From a virus (Duplodnaviria > Heunggongvirae > Uroviricota > Caudoviricetes): a DNA stretch of 64,000 bases. Below are positions 1,376-36,717 of the stretch, piece after piece (position 1 is the stretch's first letter; each line of letters begins with the position of its first letter). A program made the translations under genes and the position numbers. The notes beneath the pieces are model-generated. The model was not told the DNA's origin and ran no database searches. It was given only the letters and a program-made list of their open reading frames with translations. Where the stretch lies: IMG/VR virus record IMGVR_UViG_3300037067_027627. One strand, given 5' to 3'.

Positions 1376-1435
1376 TGTCCCGACCGGGAATCGAACCCGG
1401 AGCCTCCGCATTACCTGCCGCAAAGGTGTCAGGAC
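1376..1435 (-). ncRNA. tRNA-like minihelix or tRNA fragment: acceptor plus T-arm only, lacking D and anticodon arms
   Basis: GTCCTGA...CCGGG-TTCGATT-CCCGG-TCGGGAC-A. Acceptor strands pair with one G-U. Only 28 nt lie between the acceptor 5' strand and the T-stem. Confidence 0.3.
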
Positions 1436-1622
1436 ATCACCCTGTGTTTTAATCCTATTTTTTCATTCGCCGTGTGGTTGAGTTGCTAGCGTACCACGGA
1501 AGTTGCGGTTGCAGGTGCGGCGTGATCCCAATTTATCACCACCGGGACTCCTGTTACAATGATGCGGAGAGAAGTAATACACTGAGTTGTACAAGTTCAG
1601 GAGGTACTAGTATCCTCTCCTA

Positions 1623-2564: not shown

Positions 2565-2691
2565 ATATACCGCGAAACGGAGTTGCGCCGTTGCTACAGC
2601 CTTATGAGGGCTGAGTGCTTCTGTTACACCATCGCGATATTACTATTTCTGTCAGCAAAGTTATATAAATGTTTGCGATTAAGTGTGATGT

Positions 2692-4103: not shown

Positions 4104-4514
4104 ATGGTGATCAAAGTAAAAAAGGATCTCCAAAAAAGAATAGAAACTTTTTTGCACACATGGCCTTCTACAGAAGAGTATGGAGGCTTCCTTTTTTCAA
4201 ATCGTATTGGGAACATATCAGAGTTTCTTGTTATCCCCAATGTGCACGATAGTCGTACAAATACGTACCAGATGCCACTTACTGCGAAAGCACTGGCAGA
4301 AAAGTTTGCAAGCGCACGTAAACTCAAGGTTGTTGCACATTGGCACAATCATCCAACGCCATGCGTTTGCAGCGAACAGGATTGCCGCGCGGCGTCTTAC
4401 TGGGAACCACTGTGGTCGGTAATGATATCGCCTACGGAAAGTGGAAGATACAAAAAAGAGTTCATCTGGTATTTCTACAAGGGTATCAAGCCCGAGAAAG
4501 TTACTTTTATATAG
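4104..4514 (+). CDS. JAB/MPN (JAMM) metalloprotease-like protein
   Basis: EYGGFLF...VVAHWHNHPTPCVCSEQD fits the JAMM pattern E-x(n)-H-x-H-x(7-10)-S-x2-D. Confidence 0.55.
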   Translation: MVIKVKKDLQKRIETFLHTWPSTEEYGGFLFSNRIGNISEFLVIPNVHDSRTNTYQMPLTAKALAEKFASARKLKVVAHWHNHPTPCVCSEQDCRAASYWEPLWSVMISPTESGRYKKEFIWYFYKGIKPEKVTFI

Positions 4515-4529: not shown

Positions 4530-4820
4530 TTGACTATGAAATTCAACAAGACGGAGTTCATGCTCGGGAATGTCAATCGGGAGGAATTGCTTTCCAATCC
4601 TCATCCTGCGACCGGATATACTATAGGCAACGGGTATGAAGAGTGTCGCCAGTGTGAATTCTGTGGACGGCAACTTCCGTATAAAAACACAGATACAATA
4701 TTCGAGTCGGAAGAATATCCGTGTTGGACTTGGAAGGCGTTGGTTGCTGGATATACTATATGTGATTATTTCCAAGAGAAATCTCAATATGTGATTGAAC
4801 GTATTACGCGACGAAGATAA
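4530..4820 (+). CDS. Small Cys-rich hypothetical protein
   Basis: 96 aa; C-x2-C...C pairs (CRQCEFCG). Confidence 0.4.
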   Translation: MTMKFNKTEFMLGNVNREELLSNPHPATGYTIGNGYEECRQCEFCGRQLPYKNTDTIFESEEYPCWTWKALVAGYTICDYFQEKSQYVIERITRRR

Positions 4821-4831
4821 CTATCAACTAT

Positions 4832-5470
4832 TTAAACCATCTTGGCATTTCGCCACTCTTCCATTTCGATGTGACGATTTTCCTTTGCGCATGCGCGCAG
4901 GTATGCAATGGCAGAGTCGGCATTCCGTTTATAGCTTATGAGATACATGGTAGATATCGCAATACTGTAGTCTTCGGATGGATTTCCGGTGATAGGGTTT
5001 TGTTTCATAATCCATTGCGAAATTTCATATGTCCCGTGCATCCATCCAACAAACGAATCAAATCCGATAATAAGTTCGCGACTTTTTATTGTAAGATCGG
5101 TTTGTGTCATTGCATCGTGAAGATTACGAACAAATGCCGTGTATTTTCTTATTACAGATCCGGAACAGTAATCTGGGTGAGGAAACCCGTGTTTATCTCT
5201 GCCCGGGTATCCTGCGCCCGGAGGGAGCTGCATATTCCTGCGATGATAATCCAAAAAATCACCGCTTTCAATACACTCAAGCAACTCCATCATGATGCCG
5301 GAGCACTTCGGTTCTATTATAGATACGTAATCCTCATGCGACAGTTCACCGTCTTTGAACTTCTTGTAAGTGCGATACAGGAGATCGTATGCTTCCGTTA
5401 TTCGCCATAGAATATGATCCTCGATCTGCATAATATTATATAATGAACAACCCATTATATAACTATGCAC
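4832..5470 (-). CDS. Hypothetical protein
   Basis: 212-aa ORF. No confident motif. Confidence 0.45.
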   Translation of the reverse strand: MHSYIMGCSLYNIMQIEDHILWRITEAYDLLYRTYKKFKDGELSHEDYVSIIEPKCSGIMMELLECIESGDFLDYHRRNMQLPPGAGYPGRDKHGFPHPDYCSGSVIRKYTAFVRNLHDAMTQTDLTIKSRELIIGFDSFVGWMHGTYEISQWIMKQNPITGNPSEDYSIAISTMYLISYKRNADSAIAYLRACAKENRHIEMEEWRNAKMV

Positions 5471-6235
5471 AAGAGAATGGATATTTCGTGCGATGATGCC
5501 ATCACTCGGTATTTATCTGGGTCTTCGATAAAACAAGTTGCAATATCATGCGGTTGTTCGTCAACAACAATAACTCGCAGATTATCCGATAAGGATATTA
5601 CGAAACGTCCAAGCGGGAGGGTCGGGGTTTATAAAGAAATGACCACGGATCTGGAGGGATTCATAATCGGGATGATGATGGGTGATTCTAGCTTTGCAAA
5701 TGCAAGGAAACGAAAACTGATATCGACCGAGCATTCGATAGCTCAAACTGGGTATTTAATGTGGAAATTTGATAAATTAAGTTATATTATAGGAGGTAAA
5801 ATATATTTTCGAGATCGGTTTGATACTCGAACAAACAGAACATATCACCCGATTGCGTACCATTCTGCAACACACCCCGCGATAGATAAAATGCATCGTG
5901 AGTTCTTTAAAACCGGAACAAAACAGATTACGTCAGAGTTACTAGAGAGGATAACACCGGAAGGGATTGCGGTGTGGTATTGCGACGATGGGTGCCTATA
6001 TAGAAATCCGATGCGGTATACGAATCAACCCACCATTGCTACAAATGCATTTGATGACGATTCTCGTAATCTAATGATGGGTATGTTCAAAGAAAAGTAC
6101 GGGTTGATATTCAAGGTAAACCGTTCCAATGGATCAATACGAATGTGTAATATCACGGGAATACAAAAATTCTTCGCATTGTTTGGTCGTTTTATTCCGG
6201 CTTGCATGGAATACAAAAAGGCGAGTGTATTATGA
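5465..6235 (+). CDS. LAGLIDADG homing endonuclease with an N-terminal HTH
   Basis: Two LAGLIDADG-type motifs, GFIIGMMMGDSSF and GIAVWYCDDGCL. The N-terminus ITRYLSGSSIKQVAISCGCSSTTITRRL is HTH-like. Confidence 0.65.
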   Translation: MHKRMDISCDDAITRYLSGSSIKQVAISCGCSSTTITRRLSDKDITKRPSGRVGVYKEMTTDLEGFIIGMMMGDSSFANARKRKLISTEHSIAQTGYLMWKFDKLSYIIGGKIYFRDRFDTRTNRTYHPIAYHSATHPAIDKMHREFFKTGTKQITSELLERITPEGIAVWYCDDGCLYRNPMRYTNQPTIATNAFDDDSRNLMMGMFKEKYGLIFKVNRSNGSIRMCNITGIQKFFALFGRFIPACMEYKKASVL

Positions 6236-7038
6236 AACCTCGCTGCCTATGTATAGGAGACATCCACGGGAGGGTAACCGCGCTCAATGAAGTGCTCGAC
6301 TCCGCAGATTTTCGGAATGATAAGGATCGGCTTATCACTCTCGGAGATGTGTGCGATGGTGGAGATGATACGCGCGGTGTTATCGATCGTCTTCTCCAGA
6401 TAGAAGATCGGACTGATATACTAGGTAATCATGATGTCTGGTTTAATCAATGGGTATCTTGGAACCGTGAGATATCATTGTGCCCGCAGGAGTATTACCA
6501 TTGGCAGTCGCAAGGTGGGATATGGACAGAACGATCATACGATTTCGATGTTAGAAATGTTCCAATAGAGCATCGTAACTTCCTGAACGGTCAGGTTCCG
6601 TATTATATCGATGATGATAACCGTATATTTGTTCATGGCGGGTTCAATCCAAACAAACCGATAGGGTGCCAAACGGTCGAGTATATAACGTGGGATCGCA
6701 CCTTGATAAAGAAAGCAAAATATCGCCCGATAAAGGGGTATAATCATGTGTTTGTTGGTCACTCGTCAACAATGATGTTCAAAGAGAAGATGACAACGAT
6801 TGCGGGTGGGCGGAAAACAGTATCCCACGTGACAATAACGCATCCAGTGACGTGGCATAATCTGACTATGTGCGACTGCGGGGGTGGATGGACTGGAAGG
6901 TTGGCTATGGTAGATGTCTCCAATCCAGACAATTACTACCTTAGCAGTTTCCAGACGGCAAACCCGGCTCCGTCAATTACCCTATTTGGTACTCTCTGTC
7001 CCACTTCTGACGTTCAGACGCAAGAGGATCGTAGGTAG
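6202..7038 (+). CDS. PPP-family serine/threonine phosphatase or ApaH-like metallophosphatase
   Basis: Motifs CIGDIHGR, TLGDVCDGGDD, ILGNHDVW and VHGG are the GDxHG / GDxxDRG / GNHE pattern. Confidence 0.7.
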   Translation: MHGIQKGECIMKPRCLCIGDIHGRVTALNEVLDSADFRNDKDRLITLGDVCDGGDDTRGVIDRLLQIEDRTDILGNHDVWFNQWVSWNREISLCPQEYYHWQSQGGIWTERSYDFDVRNVPIEHRNFLNGQVPYYIDDDNRIFVHGGFNPNKPIGCQTVEYITWDRTLIKKAKYRPIKGYNHVFVGHSSTMMFKEKMTTIAGGRKTVSHVTITHPVTWHNLTMCDCGGGWTGRLAMVDVSNPDNYYLSSFQTANPAPSITLFGTLCPTSDVQTQEDRR

Positions 7039-8281: not shown

Positions 8282-8530
8282 ATGAAGAAGTCTTCCAAGA
8301 AGTCCAGTAAAAAGGACAGGAAACGCAAGCGCAAAGAGGAGGAAGACGAAGACGAAGACGAAGAGGAAGACGACGAGTGCACGTGGATGGAGAAACCGCA
8401 CACGTGTGAATTCCCGCTCGGTGAATCAGAGAACATGCCGTCGTCATGCAATCCAAGATGCCCGGCAAGACAACACATGAAGATGATTGTTGCTCAACGA
8501 GCAATAGATAACAGGAGGATGTATCAATGA
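8282..8530 (+). CDS. Small highly charged (K/E/D-rich) protein
   Basis: MKKSSKKSSKKDRKRKRKEEEDEDEDEEEDDE.... Chosen over the antisense ORF 8121..8558, which looks like a low-complexity artefact. Confidence 0.35.
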   Translation: MKKSSKKSSKKDRKRKRKEEEDEDEDEEEDDECTWMEKPHTCEFPLGESENMPSSCNPRCPARQHMKMIVAQRAIDNRRMYQ

Positions 8531-9978: not shown

Positions 9979-10259
9979 AACGCGGGACTGTTCTGTTTGA
10001 TATACGCGTGCGGATGTTAGATGTAGATCCGACACGCGGGGCTTTTGCGATCGTATTACAGGATTCCGAGGGTGGAATAGAGTGCCCGATTGAAGCATAC
10101 ATGAATACTGTGGATGCTCCGATGGATGATCTGCGTATTAAAATGGCATTCGGTGACATTCGTGATGCAGTTATAGAAGTCATGCGAAAACATTCAGAAG
10201 ACGGAAGCATTGTATACAGGAATAAAAATAAAACGTATGTATCTAGGAAACGCCAGTAG
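9975..10259 (+). CDS. Hypothetical protein
   Basis: 94-aa ORF translationally coupled to the upstream ORF. Its stop codon overlaps the 3' end of tRNA-Asn. Confidence 0.45.
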   Translation: MKRGTVLFDIRVRMLDVDPTRGAFAIVLQDSEGGIECPIEAYMNTVDAPMDDLRIKMAFGDIRDAVIEVMRKHSEDGSIVYRNKNKTYVSRKRQ

Positions 10260-10322
10260 CAGGGCTCGAACCTACGAAACAAGATTAACGGTCTTGCGTG
10301 TTACCAACTACACTATACTGGC
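10251..10322 (-). tRNA. tRNA-Asn (anticodon GTT)
   Basis: Perfect acceptor GCCAGTA/TACTGGC. D-stem GTGT/ACAC. Anticodon arm CAAGA-CCGTTAA-TCTTG (C33 is unusual). T-arm GTAGG-TTCGAGC-CCTGC. Discriminator G. Confidence 0.7.
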
Positions 10323-10325
10323 TCA

Positions 10326-10409
10326 TCGGTGATGCAGGATTTGAACCTGCGAAAGCCCTTCGACAACGGATCTTGAATCCGTCCCGTTTGACCACTCCGG
10401 CAATCACCG
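10326..10409 (-). tRNA. tRNA-Leu (anticodon CAA)
   Basis: Acceptor CGGTGAT/ATCACCG. Anticodon arm ACGGA-TTCAAGA-TCCGT. 15-nt variable arm TGTCGAAGGGCTTTC. T-arm GCAGG-TTCAAAT-CCTGC. Discriminator A. Confidence 0.75.
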
Positions 10410-10411
10410 TA

Positions 10412-10495
10412 TACGCCGGGCAAGATTCGAACTTGCGAAAGCCCTTCGACACCGGGTTCTAAGCCCGGCGGATTTGACCACTCTCCCACCGACGT
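10412..10495 (-). tRNA. tRNA-Leu (anticodon TAG)
   Basis: Acceptor ACGTCGG/CCGGCGT. Anticodon arm CCGGG-CTTAGAA-CCCGG. Same long variable arm as the neighbouring Leu. T-arm GCAAG-TTCGAAT-CTTGC. Discriminator A. Only 2 nt from the next tRNA. Confidence 0.75.
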
Positions 10496-10536
10496 TCTTG
10501 TTAGTTTTGTTATCTTTGTTAGTTCCCTCTCGGGAA

Positions 10537-10619
10537 TGCGTCCGACAGGACTTGAACCTGTATTGTTTCCTCGTGCTCGACTTTAAATCGAGTGCGTTCA
10601 ACCGTTTCGCCACGGACGC
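10537..10619 (-). tRNA. tRNA-Leu (anticodon TAA)
   Basis: Acceptor GCGTCCG/CGGACGC. Anticodon arm CTCGA-TTTAAAG-TCGAG. Long variable region. T-arm ACAGG-TTCAAGT-CCTGT. Discriminator A. Confidence 0.65.
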
Positions 10620-10622
10620 GCA

Positions 10623-10704
10623 TAAGTGGAGCCGGATTCGCACCGGCGACGTTTCCTCGTCCAGAATCTCGATCTGGTGGAGTCGGCTTCTGTCCCATCC
10701 ACTT
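10623..10704 (-). tRNA. tRNA-Leu (anticodon GAG)
   Basis: Acceptor AAGTGGA/TCCACTT. Anticodon arm CCAGA-TCGAGAT-TCTGG. Variable hairpin ACGAGGAAACGTC. T-arm GCCGG-TGCGAAT-CCGGC with G55. Discriminator A. Confidence 0.65.
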
Positions 10705-10738
10705 TCTTTCAACTATCTGGAATTTCCAGACAGTTGAA

Positions 10739-10823
10739 CGATACCGGTAGGAATTGAACCTACAAAGTCTTTCGACCCGGCTGCTTTCAAGGCAGTTTAG
10801 CGCACCACACTACCCACGGTACC
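10739..10823 (-). tRNA. tRNA-Ser (anticodon TGA)
   Basis: Acceptor GGTACCG/CGGTATC. Anticodon loop CTTGAAA. Long variable arm. T-arm GTAGG-TTCAATT-CCTAC. Discriminator G. Confidence 0.55.
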
Positions 10824-10891
10824 ATTTGTTCTGCGAGGCGGTACAGGGGTGTTACCCCGCGACCTTTAGGAGAATCGCCCTACCCCGCATA
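10824..10891. ncRNA. Unresolved 68-nt structured spacer between tRNA-Ser and tRNA-Cys; possibly a non-canonical or degenerate tRNA
   Basis: Contains the GGGGTGTTACCCC hairpin and GGCG...CGCC pairing, but no canonical T-loop could be placed. Confidence 0.2.
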
Positions 10892-10974
10892 AGGACATAA
10901 CAGGATTCGAACCTGTGAAGGGAAATCCCTGTGGATCTGCAATCCACCGCAATTGACCGCTCTGCCATATGCCC
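10892..10974 (-). tRNA. tRNA-Cys (anticodon GCA) with an unusually long (14-nt) variable region
   Basis: Acceptor GGGCATA/TATGTCC. Anticodon arm GTGGA-TTGCAGA-TCCAC. T-arm ACAGG-TTCGAAT-CCTGT. Discriminator U, the universal Cys identity. Extra hairpin AGGGATTTCCCT in the variable position. Confidence 0.55.
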
Positions 10975-11011
10975 ATTTCTTTTCAGGTATTAAGTAATTC
11001 TTAACACCTCA

Positions 11012-11096
11012 CGCCCCGTGCTGGAATCGAACCAACGCCACCCAACGGGTGCACAACGATTAGCAGTCGTGGGGATTACCGCTCTCCCAACGGGGC
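11012..11096 (-). tRNA. tRNA-Ser (anticodon GCT)
   Basis: Acceptor GCCCCGT/ACGGGGC. Anticodon loop CTGCTAA. Long variable arm GTGCACCCGTTGGGTGGC. T-arm GTTGG-TTCGATT-CCAGC. Discriminator G. Confidence 0.65.
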
Positions 11097-11241
11097 AAAA
11101 AACCTATACTAGCCGCTTATAGACTAAGCAAGCGACACGAGGACAGACTATTCAGTAAAGAGACAACCTTAGAAACGTTTCCATCTCTTTCACCGTATCT
11201 GAACATAATAATATGTTGGGCGGGGATCTATATAAAGTTAG

Positions 11242-12366
11242 TTATCGCCGCTCGATTTGTTGTTTTTCTGCATGCATCCGCGTGCTTGAAATTCTTTGCC
11301 CTGTCGCGTCAGTAACCAGTGGTATGAGACAGATGGCAACAGGAGGAAGTGAATACATTTTCCGAAGATCGTTAACGTACTCAGCATTCTCTTTTGTTTC
11401 TTCACTTGCTACGAGAATGTCGTAGAATGGGTTCATTCCGACATCTCCCCACGCATCCACCAGTGGTTTAAACATGTAATCCGCATGATACTTCTTTGAT
11501 TTTATATAGTCTTTTATCTGGTTTATACGAACTTTGTACGGCTGAACCGGATGAGTTTTCTTGCTTGCCATGTGATCGCTTGTAATCCCGATATGTACAG
11601 CTCCCCCGTTCCCAGCAAGAGAGAATGCCGCATCTAATAACGCTCTATGCCCTGCGTGTAAGAGATCGAATGTCCCTCCAACCACAATCTCGGGGCGATT
11701 CATACGAATCATCCCTAGAATATTCTCAACCATTTTATTTCCCAAGAGTTTCTGGATAACCGGGGTATAGAATATCGGATCGCGTCTCATGAGTTTGATA
11801 AGAATATCTTTGCGCGCGCGATAGTATACTGTGGCCGGAACAAAAGCGTATTCTTCCCGTATCCAGTTTTCGATTTCCTCATAATGATGTGACGCCGTGT
11901 AAGCCAAATCAATATCCATAACCAAGGCTTCGTCAGGGTTTCGCGGAGGTTCCACATGTTCTGTCGCCAGAATATACGACTTTATTCGTTCGATAACAAC
12001 GAGATCTGGGGTCTTACCCGATCGGTTGTATAGTTCTGACATTACAGATTCACATCCATCCGCACTTATCCTTACATTTTCATGATCTGTGGAATGGGTG
12101 TCATAAACAATATCGTGGAAGAATAACGCCAGAATTGCTTCGTCCGGGTAATTAAACTCGTGACGGAACCACGCAGCGTTTGATATGCATTCAGTGAGAT
12201 GGTTTATGCTGTGGTATTTACGTGATTTATGCGTATACGGTTTCACTACAGTAATGAAGAAGTAATCGAGACTGTCGTGGAGTCCCAGATTTTCGCATGC
12301 ATCTCGCCACATGTCATATAAATACTGCTGGGATTCCGTTGGTATAGCAATTCTTGAATTTGCCAT
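11242..12366 (-). CDS. HD-domain phosphohydrolase fused to NMN/NaMN adenylyltransferase (NadM/NadD-like cytidylyltransferase fold)
   Basis: The C-terminal half carries the nucleotidyltransferase (H/T)xGH motif, GGTFDLLHAGH. The N-terminal half has HD-like His/Asp residues (HSINHL...FFHDIVYD). Start trimmed to MANSRIAIP at 12366 to remove overlap with the divergent gene. Confidence 0.6.
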   Translation of the reverse strand: MANSRIAIPTESQQYLYDMWRDACENLGLHDSLDYFFITVVKPYTHKSRKYHSINHLTECISNAAWFRHEFNYPDEAILALFFHDIVYDTHSTDHENVRISADGCESVMSELYNRSGKTPDLVVIERIKSYILATEHVEPPRNPDEALVMDIDLAYTASHHYEEIENWIREEYAFVPATVYYRARKDILIKLMRRDPIFYTPVIQKLLGNKMVENILGMIRMNRPEIVVGGTFDLLHAGHRALLDAAFSLAGNGGAVHIGITSDHMASKKTHPVQPYKVRINQIKDYIKSKKYHADYMFKPLVDAWGDVGMNPFYDILVASEETKENAEYVNDLRKMYSLPPVAICLIPLVTDATGQRISSTRMHAEKQQIERR

Positions 12367-12419
12367 AATAACTCTTGATACAGGAAGAATATAAATATAG
12401 CTACTACCATTTTTAATAC

Positions 12420-13580
12420 ATGGATGACATCGCGTGGATGAATGAGCCTGAGGCTGCAAAAGCACTTGTATATAATATGCTCAATGTAACGCGTATTTTG
12501 TCTCCGACAGGAATGGAACGCGAGATGACCGCGTTCTGCAACGAAGAATTAATAAAATGCGGATTTGAAACGCACATCGATACACATGGAAATATAATGG
12601 CAATACGTGGGCGGGATTCCCAAGATAAATTCATTCTTCTTAATTCTCATATGGATACTGTCCCGATAAACAGGCCGCGATCTCGCCTTTCACTTAGAGA
12701 AGAATATGTGAAAAAACGGAACGATATTCTCACTCGCAGGTTTGGTGTAAAATGCAGATATGTATCAGAAGGGAAAGCACTGATAAGAGCGAGAGATCAC
12801 TATGATACATCAGGATCGTTGTCATTTGAAAGTAGGGAAATGCACGAGTTATATGACCAAGAGCACAAGCAATTCCAAGCCGAACTCGAAGATTTAGAAC
12901 GATTTGTGAAAGACAACGAGAAAAACACTGACGTGTGGGTAGAAGAAGTATCAAACCCTTGGGAACCGCAAAGAATAGTATATAATCCAAGTGCTACTGC
13001 CATCGAGATCACCGAAGGACGGGGAGAGATGTATATGGGCGGGGATGATAAAGCCGGGGTTGCGATGATTCTTACTATTGCTCAACTCACGGATTACCCG
13101 TTGAAAATATTATTTACGGTATCAGAGGAAGAATTCGATATACGCGTTCCCGACCCAGACGATTCTGACCGTACTATCCGTGTATCCGGGGTTCACACGA
13201 TTCCCCCCGACTTCTATGACGATGTTGCGTTTGATTTGACACTGGATAAAGGAGAGGGCAATCTGCTTGTTCCAAAAATAAGCGGGAAGTTGTTATGTGG
13301 TGAAGATCTCGTGACTTTCATATTGCATGTATCAGAAATTGCAGATTACCCGCTTAAAGTAGTGGAAGGATTACGATGTGATGCACTTTACATACGTGAC
13401 CATGTTCCAGCCGTGAATATGTCCACGGGATATCACAACCCGCACCGTCCTAACGATTATGTTAATATTATAGAATCGCATAATATGATGGCTCTTGTAC
13501 GCAAAATTATAACAGAATATAATGCAACCAAGCCTGTGTTTGATCGTATTAAGAAAAAGAAACCTAAAACATCCGATTAG
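12420..13580 (+). CDS. M20-family metallopeptidase (ArgE/DapE/peptidase T-like)
   Basis: LNSHMDTV (H-x-D), GGDDKAGVAMILTIAQ (metal-binding Asp) and FTVSEEEFD (EE) form the M20 dinuclear-zinc signature. Confidence 0.65.
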   Translation: MDDIAWMNEPEAAKALVYNMLNVTRILSPTGMEREMTAFCNEELIKCGFETHIDTHGNIMAIRGRDSQDKFILLNSHMDTVPINRPRSRLSLREEYVKKRNDILTRRFGVKCRYVSEGKALIRARDHYDTSGSLSFESREMHELYDQEHKQFQAELEDLERFVKDNEKNTDVWVEEVSNPWEPQRIVYNPSATAIEITEGRGEMYMGGDDKAGVAMILTIAQLTDYPLKILFTVSEEEFDIRVPDPDDSDRTIRVSGVHTIPPDFYDDVAFDLTLDKGEGNLLVPKISGKLLCGEDLVTFILHVSEIADYPLKVVEGLRCDALYIRDHVPAVNMSTGYHNPHRPNDYVNIIESHNMMALVRKIITEYNATKPVFDRIKKKKPKTSD

Positions 13581-19151: not shown

Positions 19152-19546
19152 TCATGCTGATCCTGACCTGATGTGGTGCTCTTCCGTAGTCGTTCTCTTT
19201 CAATCTTCATAATCAATTCATTATACGCGGAATCAGAGAACATACTGGTGTGCCTCTTGATCCACCTTTCCATAATATCCAGCGTTGCGATCGTGGCGGT
19301 GCGGGCTGATTCCTTTGCTGCAATACCCATCATGTATTTACATTCGTCCTTCGTAATTGGTTTCGGTGCCGGGGTGTGCAGATGGAAACTTAAATTAGGA
19401 CACCCCAGTTCTATTTTCATACATTCAGTACATGATTTATATTTATGGCAAGTCCCTATTCCTTTCATTGTGGTTTCACCGGCTTCCTGCAACACTGGCA
19501 TTTGCTCGAACCGAATCAAGAGTTCGAACCACCCCGAGATACTCAC
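19148..19546 (-). CDS. Hypothetical Cys-rich protein
   Basis: 132-aa ORF. Confidence 0.4.
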   Translation of the reverse strand: MSISGWFELLIRFEQMPVLQEAGETTMKGIGTCHKYKSCTECMKIELGCPNLSFHLHTPAPKPITKDECKYMMGIAAKESARTATIATLDIMERWIKRHTSMFSDSAYNELIMKIERERLRKSTTSGQDQHE

Positions 19547-20171
19547 GGAATATCAACGCGTTTGTTGATTTTGGAAGCTTCGTTCTCGTGTAAGCGGCAT
19601 CGATCATGTCTAATAAAGCATCGATCTCATCTCGGTTCGTTGTTGGTGGTGCGGGTTCGAATGCAACACCTTTCCCGTCCAGAAGATTAATACCAAACTG
19701 GAGAGTGCGGAACGCAGATCGCAATGCTTTCTCTTCTGATACAGATCCTTTCCGTTTTGTGATATCAGCTAGTTGACTTATCGCCATCCCACGGACTGAC
19801 CAGTACGTAGATGCAGCCAGATTCTTCGAAACGATATCACGAAGTTTATCATACTCTACGGATCTTGTGATTACATGCGGGCTCATTACTGCCCAAATCG
19901 CATTACAGTTCCCTTTTATAAGTAAATCTACAAGGTGCCCGATCTCCATGAACTGGAACTCCCATTCCCCAAGATCGTTTTCGTGTTTGCGGAATGGCAT
20001 AGTTTCCGGAATTCGCCACCCTTCCAATATTCTTAACGTAGGATATTGATACACTATCATGATGTCGTGGTCACTATCAGGGGTGTCCATCCCCCACATA
20101 TGCGATCCAATTACAGTTCTGAAAAGTTCTTTCCCGGGTAAATTTTGACCGGGAAAAGTTTTAGTTTCCAT
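19476..20171 (-). CDS. Pol-beta-superfamily nucleotidyltransferase (minimal nucleotidyltransferase fold)
   Basis: GSHMWGMDTPDSDHDIMIVY fits the G[SG]-x9-13-D-x-[DE] signature. Confidence 0.55.
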   Translation of the reverse strand: METKTFPGQNLPGKELFRTVIGSHMWGMDTPDSDHDIMIVYQYPTLRILEGWRIPETMPFRKHENDLGEWEFQFMEIGHLVDLLIKGNCNAIWAVMSPHVITRSVEYDKLRDIVSKNLAASTYWSVRGMAISQLADITKRKGSVSEEKALRSAFRTLQFGINLLDGKGVAFEPAPPTTNRDEIDALLDMIDAAYTRTKLPKSTNALIFREYLGVVRTLDSVRANASVAGSR

Positions 20172-21253
20172 TATCGCGCCTCGTTCCTAATCATTTTCTC
20201 TTGTGACCAGTGTTTACTCGTTGTCACGTGACCCGTACGAACATACTTCGCAACGTTCTGGTCGAATTCATTGAATGGGTACGAATACATACTTCTGACC
20301 ACAATTCCTTCGTGCCCGTGTCTAACAACAAGATCACCCCATGATTTCACTTCGCGTTCTAGGTCTCTTGCAGATGATATCCGCATCGGAACCAGTGGGT
20401 ATCCTTGGTGATGTTCATTATACATCTCGTATAACGTCGGTGTCGTAGAGACGTTCAGTATCTGCGCCCAGTCCTTAACCGATGCCCAGCTCGCCCACTC
20501 TGCATGATTGTGATCATAAACTGCGAAAAGTTGCAGGTATCCCCTGTTGAGGGCAAGATCTCCTATATAATGAATGGAGTGTTTCGCATATAACCACTCC
20601 CCAAATATCTGTACACCGTCCGGAATCAGATCCCGCATCACCGCATGCATAGATTTCACCATCGCAAACGATGGGTGTGGGGCATCGTGCGCATTCCGCG
20701 CAGCAACACCACGATTATCGAACGTGACATTACTCCCATCCATCTTCAAAGTGAATACGATATCCTTGTTGCACAGGGATTCCCACGGCATTATCCCATT
20801 TTCACGTTTCTCTTCAACGTGACCCCCGGGACTATTGCGGAAGAATGGAGTATGCGGGTACTTTATGCGTAGTCCTTTTGCGGAGGACAGATTTGGGATC
20901 GTGTGGGGAACGCCCCACTTGTTAAACTCCGTAAATGGTGACTTCACAACGATCAGTTTCTTCGGGTAGATCGCAGGAGAAATCCCGCACCATTTCCTGA
21001 GTTGATTCGGGGTGATTGCGCCTTTCTCTGCATCCATATGATGATTCTCACACAATGGCGCACCGTTCCCGTACACATACCCGCCATTTTCGGTATGTGC
21101 GTCCCACAATGCCCGTTCGAGTATGTGATGAGCGTCAACCGCCGCGTTCTTACACCACGGTACACAACACTTTCCATTATGTATCGCGAATGTTTCTTCC
21201 CGGAACTTCGCCCTTACCGGGTTCTGTTCCTTTCTGTTTGACATTGTTATCAC
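20171..21253 (-). CDS. HNH endonuclease domain fused to an ATP-dependent RNA ligase (Rnl-like nucleotidyltransferase)
   Basis: N-terminal HNH: CCVPWC...DAHHI...LCENHH. Ligase motif I KxDG in VFTLKMDGSNVTF. Motif IV-like EGIVVRS and motif V-like LYAKHSIHY. The first ~70 nt overlap the upstream ORF, so the true start may be downstream. Confidence 0.6.
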   Translation of the reverse strand: MITMSNRKEQNPVRAKFREETFAIHNGKCCVPWCKNAAVDAHHILERALWDAHTENGGYVYGNGAPLCENHHMDAEKGAITPNQLRKWCGISPAIYPKKLIVVKSPFTEFNKWGVPHTIPNLSSAKGLRIKYPHTPFFRNSPGGHVEEKRENGIMPWESLCNKDIVFTLKMDGSNVTFDNRGVAARNAHDAPHPSFAMVKSMHAVMRDLIPDGVQIFGEWLYAKHSIHYIGDLALNRGYLQLFAVYDHNHAEWASWASVKDWAQILNVSTTPTLYEMYNEHHQGYPLVPMRISSARDLEREVKSWGDLVVRHGHEGIVVRSMYSYPFNEFDQNVAKYVRTGHVTTSKHWSQEKMIRNEAR

Positions 21254-23543: not shown

Positions 23544-23788
23544 GTTTTTGTTTCCTCCATTTTACTTTACTTAATCCCCTCTTCGGGGAAACGTGAGTAG
23601 CGGGGGATCGAACCCCGCGCAAGTGCTGCCACACTTTTCCTGATGGTGATTCATCCAGACGTACAGAAATCCGGAAGCGGATGCCCTGTTCGGGAAACAT
23701 CCCATTATCCTTCCCACTCACACAATCACGACCCGGACGGCAAGCTCCGGTTCACGCCTCGGGGTTGTACGATCCTCAATCGTGAAAT

Positions 23789-23828
23789 GTCGTGAACGGG
23801 GCTCGCACCCGTTTGCCGCTCGACACGA
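23789..23828 (-). repeat. Intergenic tRNA-like minihelix repeat, copy 2; outer stem variant TCGTG/CACGA
   Basis: GTCGTGAACGGGGCTCGCACCCGTTTGCCGCTCGACACGAC. Compensatory change in the outer stem. Lies directly after the stop of 23838..24044. Confidence 0.8.
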
Positions 23829-23837
23829 CGGATAATC

Positions 23838-24044
23838 TCATCTAAGTATTATCACCGCTAACACAACAACTACTACAAATAATACGAATAGTGCTGGCAA
23901 CCAAACCAACCACCACGGCATGATAATGTTAAATCCATAAAACAATACAAGAAGCGCAATCTGCGCAACAAACAGCAATCCTACTGTAAAGTTAGACATG
24001 TTAGTTTCACTTCTGTTCGCAACATCCGCAAGCACCGTGTGCAT
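23838..24044 (-). CDS. Small membrane protein
   Basis: 68 aa, almost entirely hydrophobic. Confidence 0.4.
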   Translation of the reverse strand: MHTVLADVANRSETNMSNFTVGLLFVAQIALLVLFYGFNIIMPWWLVWLPALFVLFVVVVVLAVIILR

Positions 24045-24815: not shown

Positions 24816-25139
24816 TTAATCCTCGCTGCCATCATCTTCGTCTTCGTCGTCTTCGTCGTCATCCTCATCGTCGTCTTCGTCCTCGCATTCGTCCTCGTCT
24901 TCGTCGTCACAAGGGCAATCGTCTTCGGGCTGTGTGAAATCAAGAATCTTGTCTTTCACGACCTCAACGTTGAAAATGTCTGATAATGCAACAGAGTCAT
25001 CCTCAATCAAATCGGTCATTGCTTCGTCGGCGATATCAATTGCTTCGCGCGGGTTCTTTGCTTCGACAATGGTAAATGCCGAATATTTTACTACGAACCT
25101 CTTTAGTACTGGTGCTTTACGTTTTCCCATAAGTATCAC
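24816..25139 (-). CDS. Hypothetical protein with a poly-acidic (D/E) C-terminal tail
   Basis: C-terminus PCDDEDEDECEDEDDDEDDDEDDEDEDDGSED. Confidence 0.45.
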   Translation of the reverse strand: MILMGKRKAPVLKRFVVKYSAFTIVEAKNPREAIDIADEAMTDLIEDDSVALSDIFNVEVVKDKILDFTQPEDDCPCDDEDEDECEDEDDDEDDDEDDEDEDDGSED

Positions 25140-26896: not shown

Positions 26897-27247
26897 TTAT
26901 GATTCCTTCTTTGGATCACGTTCTTCGATAATCGCCGATAGTAAGATGAGGTAATTTCGGGCATCCGAAACTCGTTGTGAGAACCCTTCTGTAGCTCCAG
27001 TCCCGCCCCACCCCAGCCGTGTTCCGGGTCTCATCGCAGCCTTGGCAATAGCTTGGATATGCTTCATCATAAAAACAAGGCATACTTCTTCCGGGGTGAT
27101 CCCAAGTTGATTCGCGGTTGTCTTGAAGTTAACCAATACATCAGTATCGGCAGCATATTCAGATCGCTTTGTTATGAGGAGACTACGTTCAGCCCCCTCG
27201 AACATATTGTAGAGATTTTCAAAAGATTGTTTATCCATGATCTTCAC
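26897..27247 (-). CDS. Hypothetical protein
   Basis: 116-aa ORF. Confidence 0.45.
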   Translation of the reverse strand: MKIMDKQSFENLYNMFEGAERSLLITKRSEYAADTDVLVNFKTTANQLGITPEEVCLVFMMKHIQAIAKAAMRPGTRLGWGGTGATEGFSQRVSDARNYLILLSAIIEERDPKKES

Positions 27248-28674
27248 ACCTGCGCGTTTCTCCGTACCTGATCAAACGTCCAGTCACGGATAATACTCCC
27301 GTTCAGGAACACCGTGTTCAGGACATTATATCCCGGGACACATACTTCGTTTACAGTTGCATAGTGACCATCCTCACACGTGAGGATAAGCCGCCCGCGT
27401 TTGGAGGCTTTTCGCGCGTCTGATACCGGGCGTTTGTAAACGTCGTGCCATACCCCGTCAATATCGATCGCACTGCACTTGAATGCAAAACTCTGGGTAT
27501 CACGATTGACTTTCTGGAGAAGAGCACCGCCCATCCCGAACACGATATTGGACGGGGCGAACCGATACTTTCCGACAACCTCGTATAAAATCTGACTGAT
27601 CATATCGAGGCTGATGTAATCGCCATAGATAACACTGACGTGTGGATCGAGAACACGATACCCGCGTTCATTAACAGTCCCACCGTAGTGCTTCCACAAA
27701 AGTTCGAGAACCTGCAACGACATCCAAACCGGGTCGCCACTGTCTGGGCGGAGGACAACTTTGCCTTTACGCGCGATGATTTGGTCTTTCAGTAACTCAC
27801 CGAAATATTTGTCTGCTGCACGAATTGCATCGTATGAATCAATAACAACAGATGCAATCGCATCGTCCGGAGCACGACCGATGATCTCACGGTACGCTTC
27901 CTCCTCGTTCCCTTCCCCGTAACTGGTCACAGTTGAATGTTCTGCCGCATAAACGGAAAGGAGAATCGGATCGCGACTCATCTTGGCACTGTAATACTTG
28001 TTTGCATACCGTTTCGCAAGTAGATTGTCGCTCCCGGCGAAGTTCACTAAGTGTGCCATCCCGCCAATACCTGCGGTTTCTACAGATGATGCGCCACGGA
28101 ACCCAAAATCGTTCAGGTGCACAATCGATGCATGTTCACCGGCTTTTACTGCCCACCCTTCGATCACTTTACGAACTTCGCGACTCATTGTGGCTACGGT
28201 AATAGGATACCATACCAATTCAAGAAGTCCCTCGTAGAAGTTTGGAAGCCAGAAAGAATCGGGATCCGTGTTCTCAACGGTCATTAACACATTTTTGACC
28301 GGAACGACCATACCCTCTGGTACAGTCTTGATTTGCAGCGGAAGTTTCCCATCAAGATCGTTCGCAATGTGGCGAAAACCCTTCTCGTTGAAAAACTTAA
28401 ACCCGAATATCTCTTCGCTATCTGCAATAGCCTCGTCAATGGTTTCGTTTGTGATAACCTTCCCGGCGAGATATTTCTTCAAGTAATATTGAGTGCCGAA
28501 GCATACCGTTTCCGGGAACATACCCCCGCGACTCTCTAAATACGAGAACACAGTTCTGGTATTCTTTGGATACTGCATCCAGTGAGTTAATTTATATGCG
28601 TCAGTCGCTTCTTCCATGATGCAATCTGCCAAGATTGCCGCAGTGATAGGATTTTCTTTATTTACTTTGTCCAC
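27244..28674 (-). CDS. Nicotinamide phosphoribosyltransferase (NAMPT / NadV-like)
   Basis: 476 aa. The motifs GIGGMAHLVNFAGSDN and NIVFGMGGALLQ match NAMPT-family signatures; the overall length also fits. Confidence 0.7.
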   Translation of the reverse strand: MDKVNKENPITAAILADCIMEEATDAYKLTHWMQYPKNTRTVFSYLESRGGMFPETVCFGTQYYLKKYLAGKVITNETIDEAIADSEEIFGFKFFNEKGFRHIANDLDGKLPLQIKTVPEGMVVPVKNVLMTVENTDPDSFWLPNFYEGLLELVWYPITVATMSREVRKVIEGWAVKAGEHASIVHLNDFGFRGASSVETAGIGGMAHLVNFAGSDNLLAKRYANKYYSAKMSRDPILLSVYAAEHSTVTSYGEGNEEEAYREIIGRAPDDAIASVVIDSYDAIRAADKYFGELLKDQIIARKGKVVLRPDSGDPVWMSLQVLELLWKHYGGTVNERGYRVLDPHVSVIYGDYISLDMISQILYEVVGKYRFAPSNIVFGMGGALLQKVNRDTQSFAFKCSAIDIDGVWHDVYKRPVSDARKASKRGRLILTCEDGHYATVNEVCVPGYNVLNTVFLNGSIIRDWTFDQVRRNAQV

Positions 28675-31230: not shown

Positions 31231-31428
31231 ATATCCCACCCGGGAATGTGAATGCCGGGAATCGAACCCGGTAAATTCGTGACGTGAATCACGCCCGCGT
31301 GTTACCATTACACTCTGCTTCCACACCCACAGTGCCCGTTATTCCCCATCCATCTCCGTTCGGTCTTGGAGTACGGTTAATAGGGTATTGATCTGTTGAA
31401 CATCGATAAGTCAGACCCACTGTGGATT

Positions 31429-35589: not shown

Positions 35590-35633
35590 TTTCTCACCTC
35601 ATGAGATTGTATTCGCATCACGATACGGTGAAA

Positions 35634-35686
35634 GCGGAATGGCGGGGTTGCACCGCAGCGCGCAAGGCTTCAAGCCCTTATTCCGC
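35634..35686 (-). ncRNA. tRNA-like mini-RNA: acceptor-like stem GCGGAAU/AUUCCGC enclosing a T-arm-like hairpin (UGCAACC loop) and a second hairpin
   Basis: Perfect 7-bp inverted repeat closes two internal hairpins. Same strand as rsr and 45 nt upstream of it. Confidence 0.35.
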
Positions 35687-35877
35687 ATTGATCGAAAGTG
35701 GGGTTATCATGTGGATCTGGTTTAATATTTGTTTCAGATCGTTTGTGACACTTCGGGAAACGACCAAACCCGGACGGAGTTGAACCGCCTAATTTTAGTT
35801 CCGTAGACTAATGTGTAACCGAAGTAACCATTTCCAATCGCATCCCCACCAAATTTACATGAGACCTGAATGGAACG

Positions 35878-35980
35878 TGGAGAGATTGTGCGGGTCAGGC
35901 TTTGCCCTTTCGGGCGAGTTACGGATTCATGTGTAGTGAAATATAACGATGAAACCTTCCCCTGTCGCAACTCCACTGTG
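35878..35980 (-). ncRNA. Y-RNA-like structured RNA, unit A
   Basis: Minus-strand RNA. Terminal helices GUGGAG..CUCCAC and UGCG..CGCA around an internal loop. Internal hairpin UCGCCC-GAAA-GGGCAA (GNRA loop). Conserved block GCGACAGGGGAAGGUUUCAUCGUU shared with unit B. Confidence 0.45.
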
Positions 35981-35996
35981 TAAACATAATAGCAAT

Positions 35997-36090: not shown

Positions 36091-36154
36091 TATTGCATTG
36101 TGTTCTTGTTATTACTTATGTATGTTCGATTCTGTATATATAACTTGTCACAAA

Positions 36155-36712: not shown

Positions 36713-36717
36713 TTGCC

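Follow-up and report, generated by a model that had tools for sequence, protein, structure and literature searches.

Organization of the Eight-tRNA Operon

The window, which is the whole stretch of 64,000 nucleotides analyzed here (IMG/VR virus record IMGVR_UViG_3300037067_027627), carries eight tightly packed tRNA genes on the minus strand between positions 10251 and 11096 (Table 1). ARAGORN called all eight with the same anticodons that the initial annotation had assigned, and seven of them exceed the gathering score of the Rfam tRNA model, six at 47-64 bits and tRNA-Leu(GAG), searched alone, at 39.9 bits. The best Rfam fit of tRNA-Ser(UGA) is to the tRNA-Sec model at 37.6 bits, below that model's cut-off of 47. 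From tRNA-Ser(GCU) to tRNA-Asn the genes are separated by 37, 68, 34, 3, 41, 2, and 3 nt. CCA is not encoded in the tRNA genes, and a U follows the discriminator base in 13 of 15 tRNAs. tRNA-Leu(GAG) has the T-loop UGCGAAU and a D-loop without GG.

The array was compared with those of two related metagenomic contigs, L006 and L138. The gene order (Ser-GCU, Cys, Ser-UGA, Leu-GAG, Leu-UAA, Leu-UAG, Leu-CAA, Asn) is the same in L138 and, up to the contig end, in L006. The neighboring NMNAT-like protein is 48% identical in L138 and 62-65% identical in L006, and the tRNA-Ser(GCU) genes of the window and L006 are 100% identical, which argues for purifying selection. The oligo-T tract beyond tRNA-Asn is, by its sequence, likely to be the archaeal terminator of the operon, and L138 has a comparable TTTTATT 3' of tRNA-Asn. 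The T-run directly before tRNA-Ser(GCU) is not conserved (T6 in the window, T4 in L006, and CTT in L138).

Table 1 Coordinates of the tRNA genes, associated signals, and context genes in the window
Feature	Position	Strand	Basis
Second tRNA array including TATA box	471-2669	minus	ARAGORN, Rfam
tRNA-Lys	471-541	minus	second array
tRNA-Glu	1219-1291	minus	second array
tRNA-Arg	1300-1373	minus	second array
Intron-containing tRNA(UGC)	1376-1548	minus	second array, BHB fold
tRNA-Asp	1623-1694	minus	second array
tRNA-His	2157-2227	minus	second array
tRNA-Gln	2492-2564	minus	second array
tRNA-Met	2568-2638	minus	second array
TATA box of second array, 23 nt before tRNA-Met	2662-2669	minus	motif
Metallophosphatase	6202-7038		RNA-repair context
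Oligo-T tract GTTTTATTTTTATT, candidate operon terminator	10221-10233	minus	sequence
tRNA-Asn(GUU), G73, C32-C33	10251-10322	minus	ARAGORN, Rfam
tRNA-Leu(CAA), A73	10326-10409	minus	ARAGORN, Rfam
tRNA-Leu(UAG), A73	10412-10495	minus	ARAGORN, Rfam
3'-trailer hairpin (GAGA tetraloop) and A-rich linker	10496-10536	minus	fold
tRNA-Leu(UAA), A73, 13-nt unpaired variable region	10537-10619	minus	ARAGORN, Rfam
tRNA-Leu(GAG), A73, C33	10623-10704	minus	ARAGORN, Rfam
3'-trailer hairpin, 14 bp	10705-10738	minus	-19.7 kcal/mol, z = -7.9
tRNA-Ser(UGA), class II, G73, weak/irregular D arm	about 10739-10823 (ARAGORN 10738-10824)	minus	ARAGORN
Y-shaped structured trailer (68-nt spacer)	about 10825-10891	minus	fold, L006 conservation
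tRNA-Cys(GCA), 83 nt	10892-10974	minus	ARAGORN, Rfam
3'-trailer hairpin, 10 bp, and A-rich linker	10975-11011	minus	fold z = -6.8
tRNA-Ser(GCU), class II, G73	about 11012-11096 (ARAGORN 11011-11097)	minus	ARAGORN, Rfam
T6 run directly before tRNA-Ser	11097-11102	minus	sequence
Hairpin UUGCUUA-GUCUA-UAAGCGG containing leader stop codon	11113-11131	minus	fold, conservation
Leaderless 29-codon ORF MFRYGERDGNVSKVVSLLNSLSSCRLLSL plus stop, tail of Leu/Ser/Asn/Cys codons	11117-11206	minus	three-array comparison
Archaeal TATA box TTTATATA, 22 nt upstream of leader ATG	11229-11236	minus	motif, spacing
HD + cytidylyltransferase-like protein	11242-12465		NAD/RNA-repair context
RlaP	19476-20171		RNA-repair context
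RNA ligase	20171-21253		RNA-repair context
NAMPT	27244-28674		NAD context
Ro60/TROVE	34092-35621		RNA-repair context

The 68-nt spacer, originally described as an unresolved structured element, is indeed structured and is the largest of several hairpins that trail tRNA 3' ends. It folds into a three-way junction (-27.5 kcal/mol) in which a 10-bp stem interrupted by a bulged A joins a variable hairpin and the hairpin GGGGUAACACCCC. This Y shape is kept in L006 with two compensatory pairs, and the trailer hairpin at 10975-11011 is likewise preserved there through compensatory changes. The variable hairpin is not an anticodon arm since its loop is 8 nt in the window and 5 nt in L006. The spacer had no Rfam match at E <= 1, and a covariance model built from the two homologues found no further copy. 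A hidden tRNA was rejected (ARAGORN was blank with a lowered threshold and in its mitochondrial mode as well), as were a Y RNA or ribozyme (no Rfam match) and a C/D or H/ACA sRNA (no C/D boxes or H/ACA pocket by eye, and no Rfam match).

Archaeal Signals and the Second tRNA Array

The motif TTTAWATA occurs 24 times in the window (6.2 expected), and 10 of the 24 copies have an ATG 20-25 nt downstream (P ~2e-4), which is the pattern of leaderless archaeal promoters. The archaeal TATA boxes lie 21-24 nt before ATGs. Each tRNA array has such a box (11229-11236 and 2662-2669), placed as in archaeal TATA/BRE promoters, which lie about 23 nt before the transcript start. The tRNA(UGC) of the second array contains a perfect hBHBh' intron (CCGCA-CCUG-CAA-CCGCA ... 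UGCGG-CAGG-UAA-UGCGG), and removal of the 98-nt intron leaves a canonical 75-nt cloverleaf; this tRNA with its bulge-helix-bulge (BHB) motif is not one of the eight. The identity features that had been read as archaeal (Lys G73, Glu A73, Gln A1:U72, His G-1:C73, and no encoded CCA) are all present in the second array. tRNA-Gln combines A1:U72 with A73, the G-1 of tRNA-His (position 2228) lies opposite C73, and the archaeal set of Gln A1:U72/A73, Lys G73, Glu A73, and Cys G37 is found as a whole. The assignment of these bases to domains follows established identity rules. At least 120 genomes contain an 18-mer of tRNA-Gln, almost all of them archaeal by title, and A73 is present in 107 of 121 tRNAs with this 18-mer. 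The archaeal character of the tRNAs thus rests on stronger evidence (TATA-to-ATG spacing, the BHB intron, and the tRNA-Gln 18-mer) than was originally offered.

A bacterial sigma-70 promoter, for which there is one 9/12 match, was rejected because the tRNAs have archaeal identities and one of them a BHB intron, and because the TATA box stands at a constant distance from the ATG. Similarity of tRNA-Gln was uninformative about the host, the best matches (63-65 of 73 nt) being scattered over Halobacteriales and Woesearchaeota. A haloarchaeal origin was also rejected as the proteome is not acidic (median pI 6.7).

Genomic Context and Known Viral tRNA Sets

The window has many PHROG matches and an integrase, and its ORFs are small and closely spaced; neither a capsid nor a terminase gene was identified in it. 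Five further relatives, sought through the NMNAT gene, have other genes downstream, and in L008 a terminase adjoins the homologous NMNAT gene. No DNA similarity to any tRNA cluster was found among GenBank phages and viruses, and the window has no close relative among GenBank phages; a single 44-bp match, to Pseudomonas phage Lu11, consists of a simple trinucleotide repeat. IMG/VR scans with the neighboring protein, the spacer, the Cys tRNA, and a pair of leader motifs gave nothing or 117 chance matches without adjacent tRNAs, and a metagenome scan with the Ser-GCU core returned the same contig only. A contig from a Methanosarcinales MAG (L114) has a tRNA-Thr with the same UGC T-loop but no proteins in common with the window and was set aside. 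Genes for RNA repair lie in the same window as the tRNA arrays, the link between them being one of co-location alone.

Viral tRNA arrays are well known, including that of an archaeal virus that has more than 30 tRNAs. Halogranum tailed virus 1 (HGTV-1) has 34-36 tRNA genes, of which one contains an intron (PMC13532342), and the window likewise has many clustered tRNAs, one of them with an intron. An RNA ligase family is common to both, and the best named matches of the window's ligase include that of HGTV-1 (32% identity), but the window proteome is not halophilic (median pI 6.7). A term search of the HGTV-1 paper (PMC13532342) found no class II tRNA-Cys, recurrent C33, A18/G55 elbow, or leader ORF. 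With the tRNA clusters of T4, T5, and mycobacteriophages the window shares a polycistronic array and anticodon-loop changes (PMC10264068), and in the window, as in T4 with its Rnl1/Pnkp, an RNA ligase and a phosphatase accompany the tRNA array. The phage clusters differ in that the host domain of the window is archaeal, and the window's changes fall at U33 and the 18:55 elbow, not at the positions described for T5 (PMC10264068). What the window adds is a class II tRNA-Cys with a 7/5 branch, replacements at U33 and in the elbow, an RNA-repair neighborhood, and a leader ORF that mirrors the composition of the array.

A Class II tRNA-Cys

tRNA-Cys has a 7-bp acceptor, a 5-bp T stem, a 5-bp anticodon stem, U73, and G37. 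Its 14-nt variable region (AGGG-AUUU-CCCU-UC, 10917-10930) forms a hairpin with a 4-bp stem and a 4-nt loop in the ARAGORN/Rfam fold, in agreement with the initial annotation. A variable region of more than 10 nt in the form of a stem-loop gives the tRNA a class II shape, but its identity is not one of those of class II (Leu, Ser, bacterial Tyr, and Sec), as it has GCA and U73 and its orthologues are class I. Identical copies of the 83-nt gene occur in L002-L004. At the same operon position L006 and L138 have ordinary class I tRNA-Cys genes of 71 and 75 nt, so the extra arm was inserted recently and in a single lineage. The D-loop gained 2 nt alongside the arm. The determinants for CysRS/SepRS (GCA, U73, and G37) are kept, and the tRNA most likely still carries cysteine.

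Nematode V-arm tRNAs also combine a class II shape with an anticodon belonging to neither Ser nor Leu. The same combination is found in allo-tRNAs (PMC5389517), which have SerRS/LeuRS determinants (G73 or A73) and an 8/4 or 9/3 branch, whereas the window tRNA-Cys has Cys determinants with U73 and a 7/5 branch. The selC* tRNA-Cys of Mukai et al. (PMC5389517) are characterized by U73, a GCA or UCA anticodon, and a long variable arm, and the window tRNA-Cys shares these features with GCA as its anticodon. However, selC* tRNAs are bacterial, are linked to selenocysteine genes, and have a tRNA-Sec-like 8/4 (or bulged) branch with longer anticodon and acceptor stems, while the window tRNA-Cys belongs to a probable archaeal virus and has the canonical 7/5 branch and a 5-bp anticodon stem.

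Replacements at Position 33 and in the Elbow

Two tRNAs of the array were noted at first reading to have C33, and the ARAGORN folds agree: tRNA-Asn (loop CCGUUAA, position 10290) and tRNA-Leu(GAG) (loop UCGAGAU, position 10671). Of 143 tRNAs taken from loci in archaeal genomes, 142 have U33. Among the viral tRNAs called by ARAGORN, 3 of 26 have C33 (5 of 28 once two hand-parsed intron tRNAs are added), compared with 1 of 143 in the cellular background, and C33 is found repeatedly across the three arrays. The elbow pair G18/U55 is replaced by A18/G55 in 6 of the 26 viral tRNAs versus 1 of 143 cellular ones. The two elbow changes are coupled, both being present in all six variants and neither in the other 20. 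We know of no archaeal anticodon nuclease that requires U33 and of no cognate nuclease for the variant tRNAs of the window.

Proposed Function of the Array

The array is probably a single archaeal-type transcription unit of a large archaeal virus (or virus-like mobile element) that acts as a polycistronic tRNA supply module among RNA-repair genes. Such a unit would run from the TATA promoter through the leaderless 29-codon ORF and the eight tRNAs, spaced by 2-3 nt or by trailer hairpins, to the oligo-T terminator. The precursor, if expressed, would be processed by the RNase P and tRNase Z of the host, and because CCA is not encoded we propose that it is added by a host enzyme. The products would decode all six Leu codons, Ser AGY and UCR, Cys, and Asn. 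When those of the second array (Met, Gln, His, Asp, Arg, Glu, Lys, and one tRNA with an intron) are added, they may form the virus's own tRNA supply, which would sustain viral translation while the host tRNA pool is depleted or cleaved in infection rather than correct a codon mismatch. This role is suggested by the position of the array among RNA-repair and NAD-salvage genes along with the changes at near-invariant positions. Two weak members of the array were counted against the supply reading: tRNA-Ser(UGA), with its poor D arm and its sub-threshold fit to the Sec model only, and tRNA-Leu(UAA), with its unpaired variable region.

The classic explanation of viral tRNAs is that they serve codons more frequent in the virus than in its host, here especially those of the six-codon Leu and Ser families, whose decoding the initial annotation supposed to be reprogrammed. 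The ORFs of the window use all six Leu codons (6-27% each), and the four Leu tRNAs cover them all. Such compensation is nevertheless unlikely, and the proposed reprogramming is without support: Leu and Ser usage is nearly even in the window ORFs, no bias is mirrored by the tRNA set, the Lys and Glu C34 tRNAs of the virus serve its own minor codons (AAG 42%, GAG 37%), and there is no dedicated tRNA for UCU and UCC, together 36% of the Ser codons. Less likely still, the unusual tRNAs may be decaying pseudogenes in a hitch-hiking array with odd features that are neutral damage. The weak score of tRNA-Ser(UGA) would fit, as would the restriction of the class II tRNA-Cys and both C33 changes of the window to one lineage, and decay does happen in this array family since L138 has a truncated tRNA-Leu(UAA). 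However, every stem is intact, including a re-registered 7-bp acceptor in tRNA-Leu(GAG), the A18/G55 form of this tRNA is common to the window and L138, A18 and G55 never occur singly, and the operon order and leader are conserved. It is very unlikely that the extra arm makes tRNA-Cys(GCA) a substrate of SerRS (or LeuRS), with UGY partly read as Ser, so that the tRNA would serve recoding or mistranslation in the manner of allo-tRNAs and nematode V-arm tRNAs. SerRS recognizes its tRNAs mainly by the size of the long arm (PMC9976931), Mukai et al. deem a long V-arm with G73 or U73 compatible with serylation in allo-tRNAs, in which U73 is treated as tolerated by SerRS (PMC5389517), and the growth of the D-loop accompanied the arm. 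On the other hand, GCA and U73, the main CysRS determinants (PMC5389517), are kept along with G37, the A73 required by archaeal LeuRS (PMC9976931) is absent, the arm with its 4-bp stem is short next to the variable regions of the Ser tRNAs in the array, which measure 17-18 nt, and the tRNA-Cys of both relatives is class I.

The Leader ORF

A leader ORF of 29-31 codons lies upstream of the operon in all three arrays. L006 has an identical TATA box and spacing before the leader ATG, and L138 has a AATATATA box 23-25 nt before it. The frame is open in all three with in-frame indels, and the other two frames hit stops. The last 14-15 codons are nearly all Leu, Ser, Asn, or Cys codons (13/15, 14/14, and 14/15); 11-13 of them are directly read by tRNAs of the array, and each of the eight tRNAs is represented. 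With at least 12 of 14 codons for these amino acids, the leader is unique, barring two simple repeats, among 76,531 stop-free 14-codon windows. The hairpin over the stop codon is kept in L006 and L138, where a change from UAA to UGA preserves pairing.

Bacterial amino-acid and pheST operons have leader-peptide attenuators, which likewise possess a short upstream ORF rich in codons that match the controlled product. Here, the putatively translated leader differs in preceding tRNA genes, in belonging to a leaderless archaeal mRNA, and in sampling four amino acids together. The mutually exclusive terminator and antiterminator of attenuators are also missing, a single conserved hairpin over the stop codon being found. 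A tentative possibility is that the leader is a translational sensor, a codon test track on which ribosomes passing the Leu/Ser/Asn/Cys run report the supply of the downstream tRNAs. Equally tentatively, stalling versus smooth passage might alter the fate of the precursor via the stop-codon hairpin, RNase P access, or transcript stability. The distance of the ATG from the TATA box, like that of other leaderless genes in the window, agrees with this reading, as do the maintenance of the frame in three lineages, the near-unique tail that mirrors the eight tRNAs, and the conserved hairpin. Against it, the comparison rests on three sequences, no conserved terminator/antiterminator pair or T-run was found in them, and the second tRNA array has no leader ORF. 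The conservation could also reflect a role at the RNA level because nucleotide conservation is high as well. To our knowledge, a leader-ORF sensor of a tRNA operon has no precedent.

Implications

The neighborhood joins tRNAs, RNA ligase, RlaP, Ro60, and NAD salvage in one place. The class II and class I tRNA-Cys genes at the same operon position show a tRNA before and after a natural change of class, which makes them useful for studying how such a switch is tolerated by synthetases, EF1A, and the ribosome. If regulatory, the leader ORF would be a new mode of tRNA-gene control, in which a leader peptide of an archaeal virus controls a tRNA operon through feedback on precursor maturation or abundance. 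Two near-invariant features, U33 and G18:U55, are repeatedly replaced in viral tRNAs that otherwise look functional. Phage tRNAs evade tRNA-targeting defences through anticodon-loop changes (PMC10264068, PMC11555353, PMC11464382). C33 and A18:G55 fit a recent proposal in which immunity directed at tRNAs shapes those of viruses, and would widen its reach to archaea.

Composition and conservation of the operon

ARAGORN places 14 tRNA genes in the window, grouped into two arrays and without exception on the minus strand. The eight tRNAs that the initial annotation had read by eye as a compact array are exactly those returned by ARAGORN, with the same anticodons, at 10251-11097. With gene boundaries set by 7-bp acceptor stems, encoded CCA is absent from all eight. 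Six of them score 47-64 bits on the Rfam tRNA model and Leu-GAG reaches 39.9 bits with filters relaxed, while the irregular D arm of Ser-UGA makes the tRNA-Sec model its best fit, at 37.6 bits and thus below that model's cut-off of 47. A U directly follows the tRNA in 13 of 15 window tRNAs.

Coordinates of the tRNA genes and associated features in the window
Feature	Coordinates	Strand	Remark
tRNA-Ser-GCU	11012-11096	minus	7-bp acceptor boundary
tRNA-Cys-GCA	10892-10974	minus	7-bp acceptor boundary
tRNA-Ser-UGA	10739-10823	minus	7-bp acceptor boundary
tRNA-Leu-GAG	10623-10704	minus	7-bp acceptor boundary
tRNA-Leu-UAA	10537-10619	minus	7-bp acceptor boundary
tRNA-Leu-UAG	10412-10495	minus	7-bp acceptor boundary
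tRNA-Leu-CAA	10326-10409	minus	7-bp acceptor boundary
tRNA-Asn-GUU	10251-10322	minus	7-bp acceptor boundary
TATA box of operon	11229-11236	minus	
Leader ORF	11117-11206	minus	leaderless, 29 codons, ATG at 11206
tRNA-Met	2568-2638	minus	A18/G55
tRNA-His	2157-2227	minus	A18/G55
tRNA-Asp	1623-1694	minus	A18/G55
tRNA-Glu	1219-1291	minus	A18/G55
Ro60/TROVE gene	34092-35621		

The operons of two related metagenomic contigs, L006 and L138, were reached through homologues of the flanking HD/cytidylyltransferase-like gene, whose proteins are 62-65% (L006) and 48% (L138) identical to that of the window. L006 shares the promoter and leader of the window. Next come Ser-GCU, which is identical, Cys-GCA, the shared structured spacer and Ser-UGA, and then an HNH-endonuclease ORF (L006 4920-5627), Leu-GAG, Leu-UAA and the beginning of Leu-UAG. 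L138 has the promoter, leader, Ser-GCU, Cys-GCA, Ser-UGA, Leu-GAG, a truncated Leu-UAA, Leu-UAG, Leu-CAA and Asn-GUU. Gene order has thus been kept over considerable divergence. The L138 Leu-UAA (1535-1600) is cut off after the anticodon arm, so operon members can decay. L006 Ser-UGA (4780-4890), missed by ARAGORN, appears to carry a short anticodon-loop intron (loop CCUGAA..., C33), at which a clean BHB motif was not found. The array is absent beside the flanking gene in the other relatives examined.

Each spacer longer than 3 nt opens with a stable hairpin 0-3 nt from the upstream discriminator and continues as an A-rich tail. The window hairpins (-11.6, -19.7 and -6.6 kcal/mol) have L006 counterparts in which pairing is kept by compensatory changes. 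The largest structure is the 68-nt spacer that follows Cys. It consists of a 10-bp stem carrying a bulged A, a hairpin that varies in sequence from the window to L006 with pairing retained (two compensatory pairs), and a conserved GGGGUAACACCCC hairpin. At the same site L138 has an unrelated, equally stable long hairpin (-29.1 kcal/mol). The 68-nt spacer has no Rfam match, and a search for a second copy found none. The spacers are read as 3'-trailer structures that may function in processing, insulation or exonuclease blocking.

Archaeal signals and probable viral origin

The window is a portion of a 124.8-kb metagenomic contig, pieces of which are also present in Logan SRR18595300, ENA ERZ27247358 and JGI 3300014205. 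It is densely filled with small ORFs, many matching phage protein families (RNA ligase, RlaP, Ro60/TROVE, NAMPT, NinI-like metallophosphatase, LAGLIDADG endonuclease, DUF932, integrase, MT-A70 and a radical-SAM protein). No capsid or terminase gene was recognised within the window; in L008, which holds a relative of the flanking gene, a terminase adjoins that homologue. The flanking gene (11242-12465, minus strand), which lies immediately upstream of the array and encodes an NMNAT-like protein, and a NAMPT gene (27244-28674, minus strand) look like an NAD-salvage pair, a type known from large phages. No nucleotide relatives were found in GenBank phages or IMG/VR. Simple trinucleotide-repeat tracts lie at 8334-8382 and 24820-24900; the first accounts for the sole megablast match, to Pseudomonas phage Lu11, so that this match is no sign of kinship.

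Four lines of evidence mark the element as archaeal rather than bacterial; the initial annotation had read its tRNAs as archaeal-type from identity elements. Those elements (Lys G73, Glu A73, Gln A1:U72, His G-1:C73) are all present. The motif TTTAWATA occurs 24 times in the window against 6.2 expected, a count exceeded in none of 100 shuffles, and an ATG lies 20-25 nt downstream in 10 of the 24 (P about 2e-4); a TATA box with leaderless mRNA spacing is the archaeal pattern. The first 18 nt of tRNA-Gln are found in at least 120 GTDB genomes with almost exclusively archaeal titles, the few "bacterial" ones being mostly short MAG contigs, and A73 is present in 107 of the 121 tRNAs carrying this 18-mer. 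The fourth line is an intron-containing tRNA gene (1376-1548, minus strand) with a perfect helix-bulge-helix-bulge-helix (CCGCA/CCUG/CAA/CCGCA ... UGCGG/CAGG/UAA/UGCGG); excision of its 98-nt intron, which sits at position 37/38 as is canonical, leaves a clean 75-nt cloverleaf. A haloarchaeal host is ruled out by the non-acidic proteome of the window (median pI 6.7).

The spliced tRNA has anticodon UGC, C32-C33, A73 and the mature loop CCUGCAA. It carries C3:G70 and not the G3:U70 that alanine identity needs. In the same array, the stretch 2638-2669 (minus strand) takes in a TATA box (2662-2669) that ends 23 nt upstream of the first position of tRNA-Met, whose primary transcript probably starts at or beside the mature 5' end as a leaderless tRNA.

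Position 33 and the elbow pair

C33 had been noticed in two tRNAs, and it is present in the loops of Asn (CCGUUAA) and Leu-GAG (UCGAGAU). It also occurs in L138 Ser-UGA and, by hand parsing, in the intron-containing tRNAs of the window (CCUGCAA) and L006 (Ser-UGA); orthologues of the C33 tRNAs in other lineages have U33. The cellular background (ARAGORN on 120 archaeal genome loci, 143 tRNAs) has U33 in 142 of 143 and a UUC T-loop in 142 of 143. C33 is found in 3 of 26 ARAGORN-called viral tRNAs against 1 of 143 cellular ones (P = 0.012), or in 5 of 28 when the two hand-parsed tRNAs are included (P = 5e-4). C33 in these arrays is not an isolated slip.

A second departure concerns the elbow. 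The window Met, His, Asp, Glu and Leu-GAG tRNAs and L138 Leu-GAG (1400-1481) have an N54-G55-C56 T-loop (YGCRANY), and all carry D-loop AG in place of G18G19. All remaining viral tRNAs, including L006 Leu-GAG with its standard G18/U55, combine GG with UUC, so that both changes always coincide (6 of 26 viral against 1 of 143 cellular, P = 5e-5). This covariation of a tertiary pair argues that such tRNAs fold and are used. A search of the available literature found no description of A18/G55 tRNAs. One similar tRNA-Thr is seen on L114, a Methanosarcinales MAG contig.

A tRNA-Cys with a long variable arm

The 83-nt tRNA-Cys-GCA (acceptor GGGCAUA/UAUGUCC, U73, anticodon loop UUGCAGA with G37) does contain the 14-nt variable hairpin first noted by eye, AGGG-AUUU-CCCU-UC. 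In L006 the orthologous tRNA measures 71 nt, with only 4 nt in the variable loop and a D-loop 2 nt shorter than in the window; that of L138 measures 75 nt and has the variable loop UUUCC. The arm is confined to the window lineage (three identical copies from three samples) and looks like an expansion around an ancestral UUUCC. It is therefore an insertion of recent date in what was an ordinary viral tRNA-Cys.

The closest published case is the bacterial selC* tRNA-Cys, which is tRNA-Sec-like, has an 8/4 branch and is tied to selenocysteine genes (PMC5389517); the window tRNA has a canonical 7/5 branch and therefore lies outside that family. A long arm with G73 or U73 is regarded as compatible with SerRS (PMC5389517) and arm size is given as the major serine determinant (PMC9976931), yet it is unlikely that the new arm lets this tRNA be serylated. 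GCA and U73 are the main CysRS determinants (PMC5389517), and since the tRNA retains GCA, U73 and G37 its identity is most likely still cysteine.

The leader ORF

A short ORF, with its ATG exactly 22 nt past the TATA box, lies between that box and tRNA-Ser. It encodes MFRYGERDGNVSKVVSLLNSLSSCRLLSL* in the window, MMFRHGERDSNVSHGLLLNSLSSCSLLSL* in L006 (about 4403-4492) and MVRHEPVGTMNVSNALLLNSLSCRSSLLSL* in L138 (about 835-927), with lengths of 29-31 codons. All three lineages keep the frame open (1-5 stops in each of the other two frames), all indels are multiples of three, and substitutions in the tail are synonymous or within Leu/Ser/Asn/Cys. These amino acids, precisely those of the eight operon tRNAs, account for 13/15, 14/14 and 14/15 of the last 14-15 codons, and for 20.5% of window codons. 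Array anticodons directly read 11, 13 and 13 tail codons, with each of the eight tRNAs represented. Two simple repeats aside, at least 12 of 14 such codons are reached nowhere else among 76,531 stop-free 14-codon windows in any frame. The hairpin embedding the stop codon is conserved, a UAA to UGA change preserving pairing; the T-run after it is not.

The leader ORF could conceivably act as a translational sensor for the tRNAs that the operon itself encodes, a reading that, with three sequences available, we hold to be rather doubtful. The tail composition invites it, but nothing like a switch structure is seen, and such an ORF is missing from the other array.

Minihelix repeats and the Ro60 region

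A tRNA-like minihelix of about 40 nt recurs at eight intergenic sites on the minus strand of the window (T-arm starts 40780, 39140, 36694, 33065, 31451, 29158, 23812 and 22353). An acceptor-like stem is stacked on a T-arm-like hairpin (CCGUGA, about 10 nt, ACGGG-UGCGAGC-CCCGU, UCACGG), with compensatory outer-stem changes at 33065 (CCGUUA/UAACGG) and 23812 (GUCGUG/CACGAC). A small hairpin and a GGTGG/GGAGG motif often follow ahead of the next ORF. The minihelices could be processing sites punctuating polycistronic mRNAs. One copy is included in a low-scoring ARAGORN match at 23787-23877 (minus strand); another such match, at 31246-31325 (minus strand), has a perfect T-arm, CCGGGUUCGAUUCCCGG, the same as that of the intron-containing tRNA.

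A 1.1-kb non-coding stretch without an Rfam match (35622-36720, minus strand) lies upstream of the Ro60/TROVE gene. It contains two repeated units, UGCGACAGGG ... GUUUCAUCGUU ... GACCCGCA, in each of which the 5' and 3' ends pair as a closing stem, and a T-arm-like GGCGGUUCAACUCCGUC at about 35773-35789. These elements could serve the viral Ro60 as Y-RNA-like partners.

Proposed role

One archaeal promoter most likely transcribes the whole operon; host enzymes would process the precursor, CCA would then be added, and the products would decode Leu (all six codons), Ser, Cys and Asn. The suggestion that the array compensates for codon usage differing from the host's did not find support. Window codon usage is nearly flat, and in the other array the virus encodes tRNAs that read the Lys and Glu codons it uses less often itself, which makes simple codon compensation a less favoured reading. 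Bacteriophage tRNAs sustain translation once those of the host have been cleaved or depleted (PMC10264068, PMC11555353, PMC11464382). A comparable role, sustained translation under host tRNA cleavage or depletion, would fit the co-location of the operon with RNA ligase, RlaP, phosphatase, Ro60 and NAD-salvage enzymes and the heritable U33 and elbow changes. The element is a viral tRNA array, an already known class of which this is a variant with several tRNAs of unusual build and one putative regulatory element.
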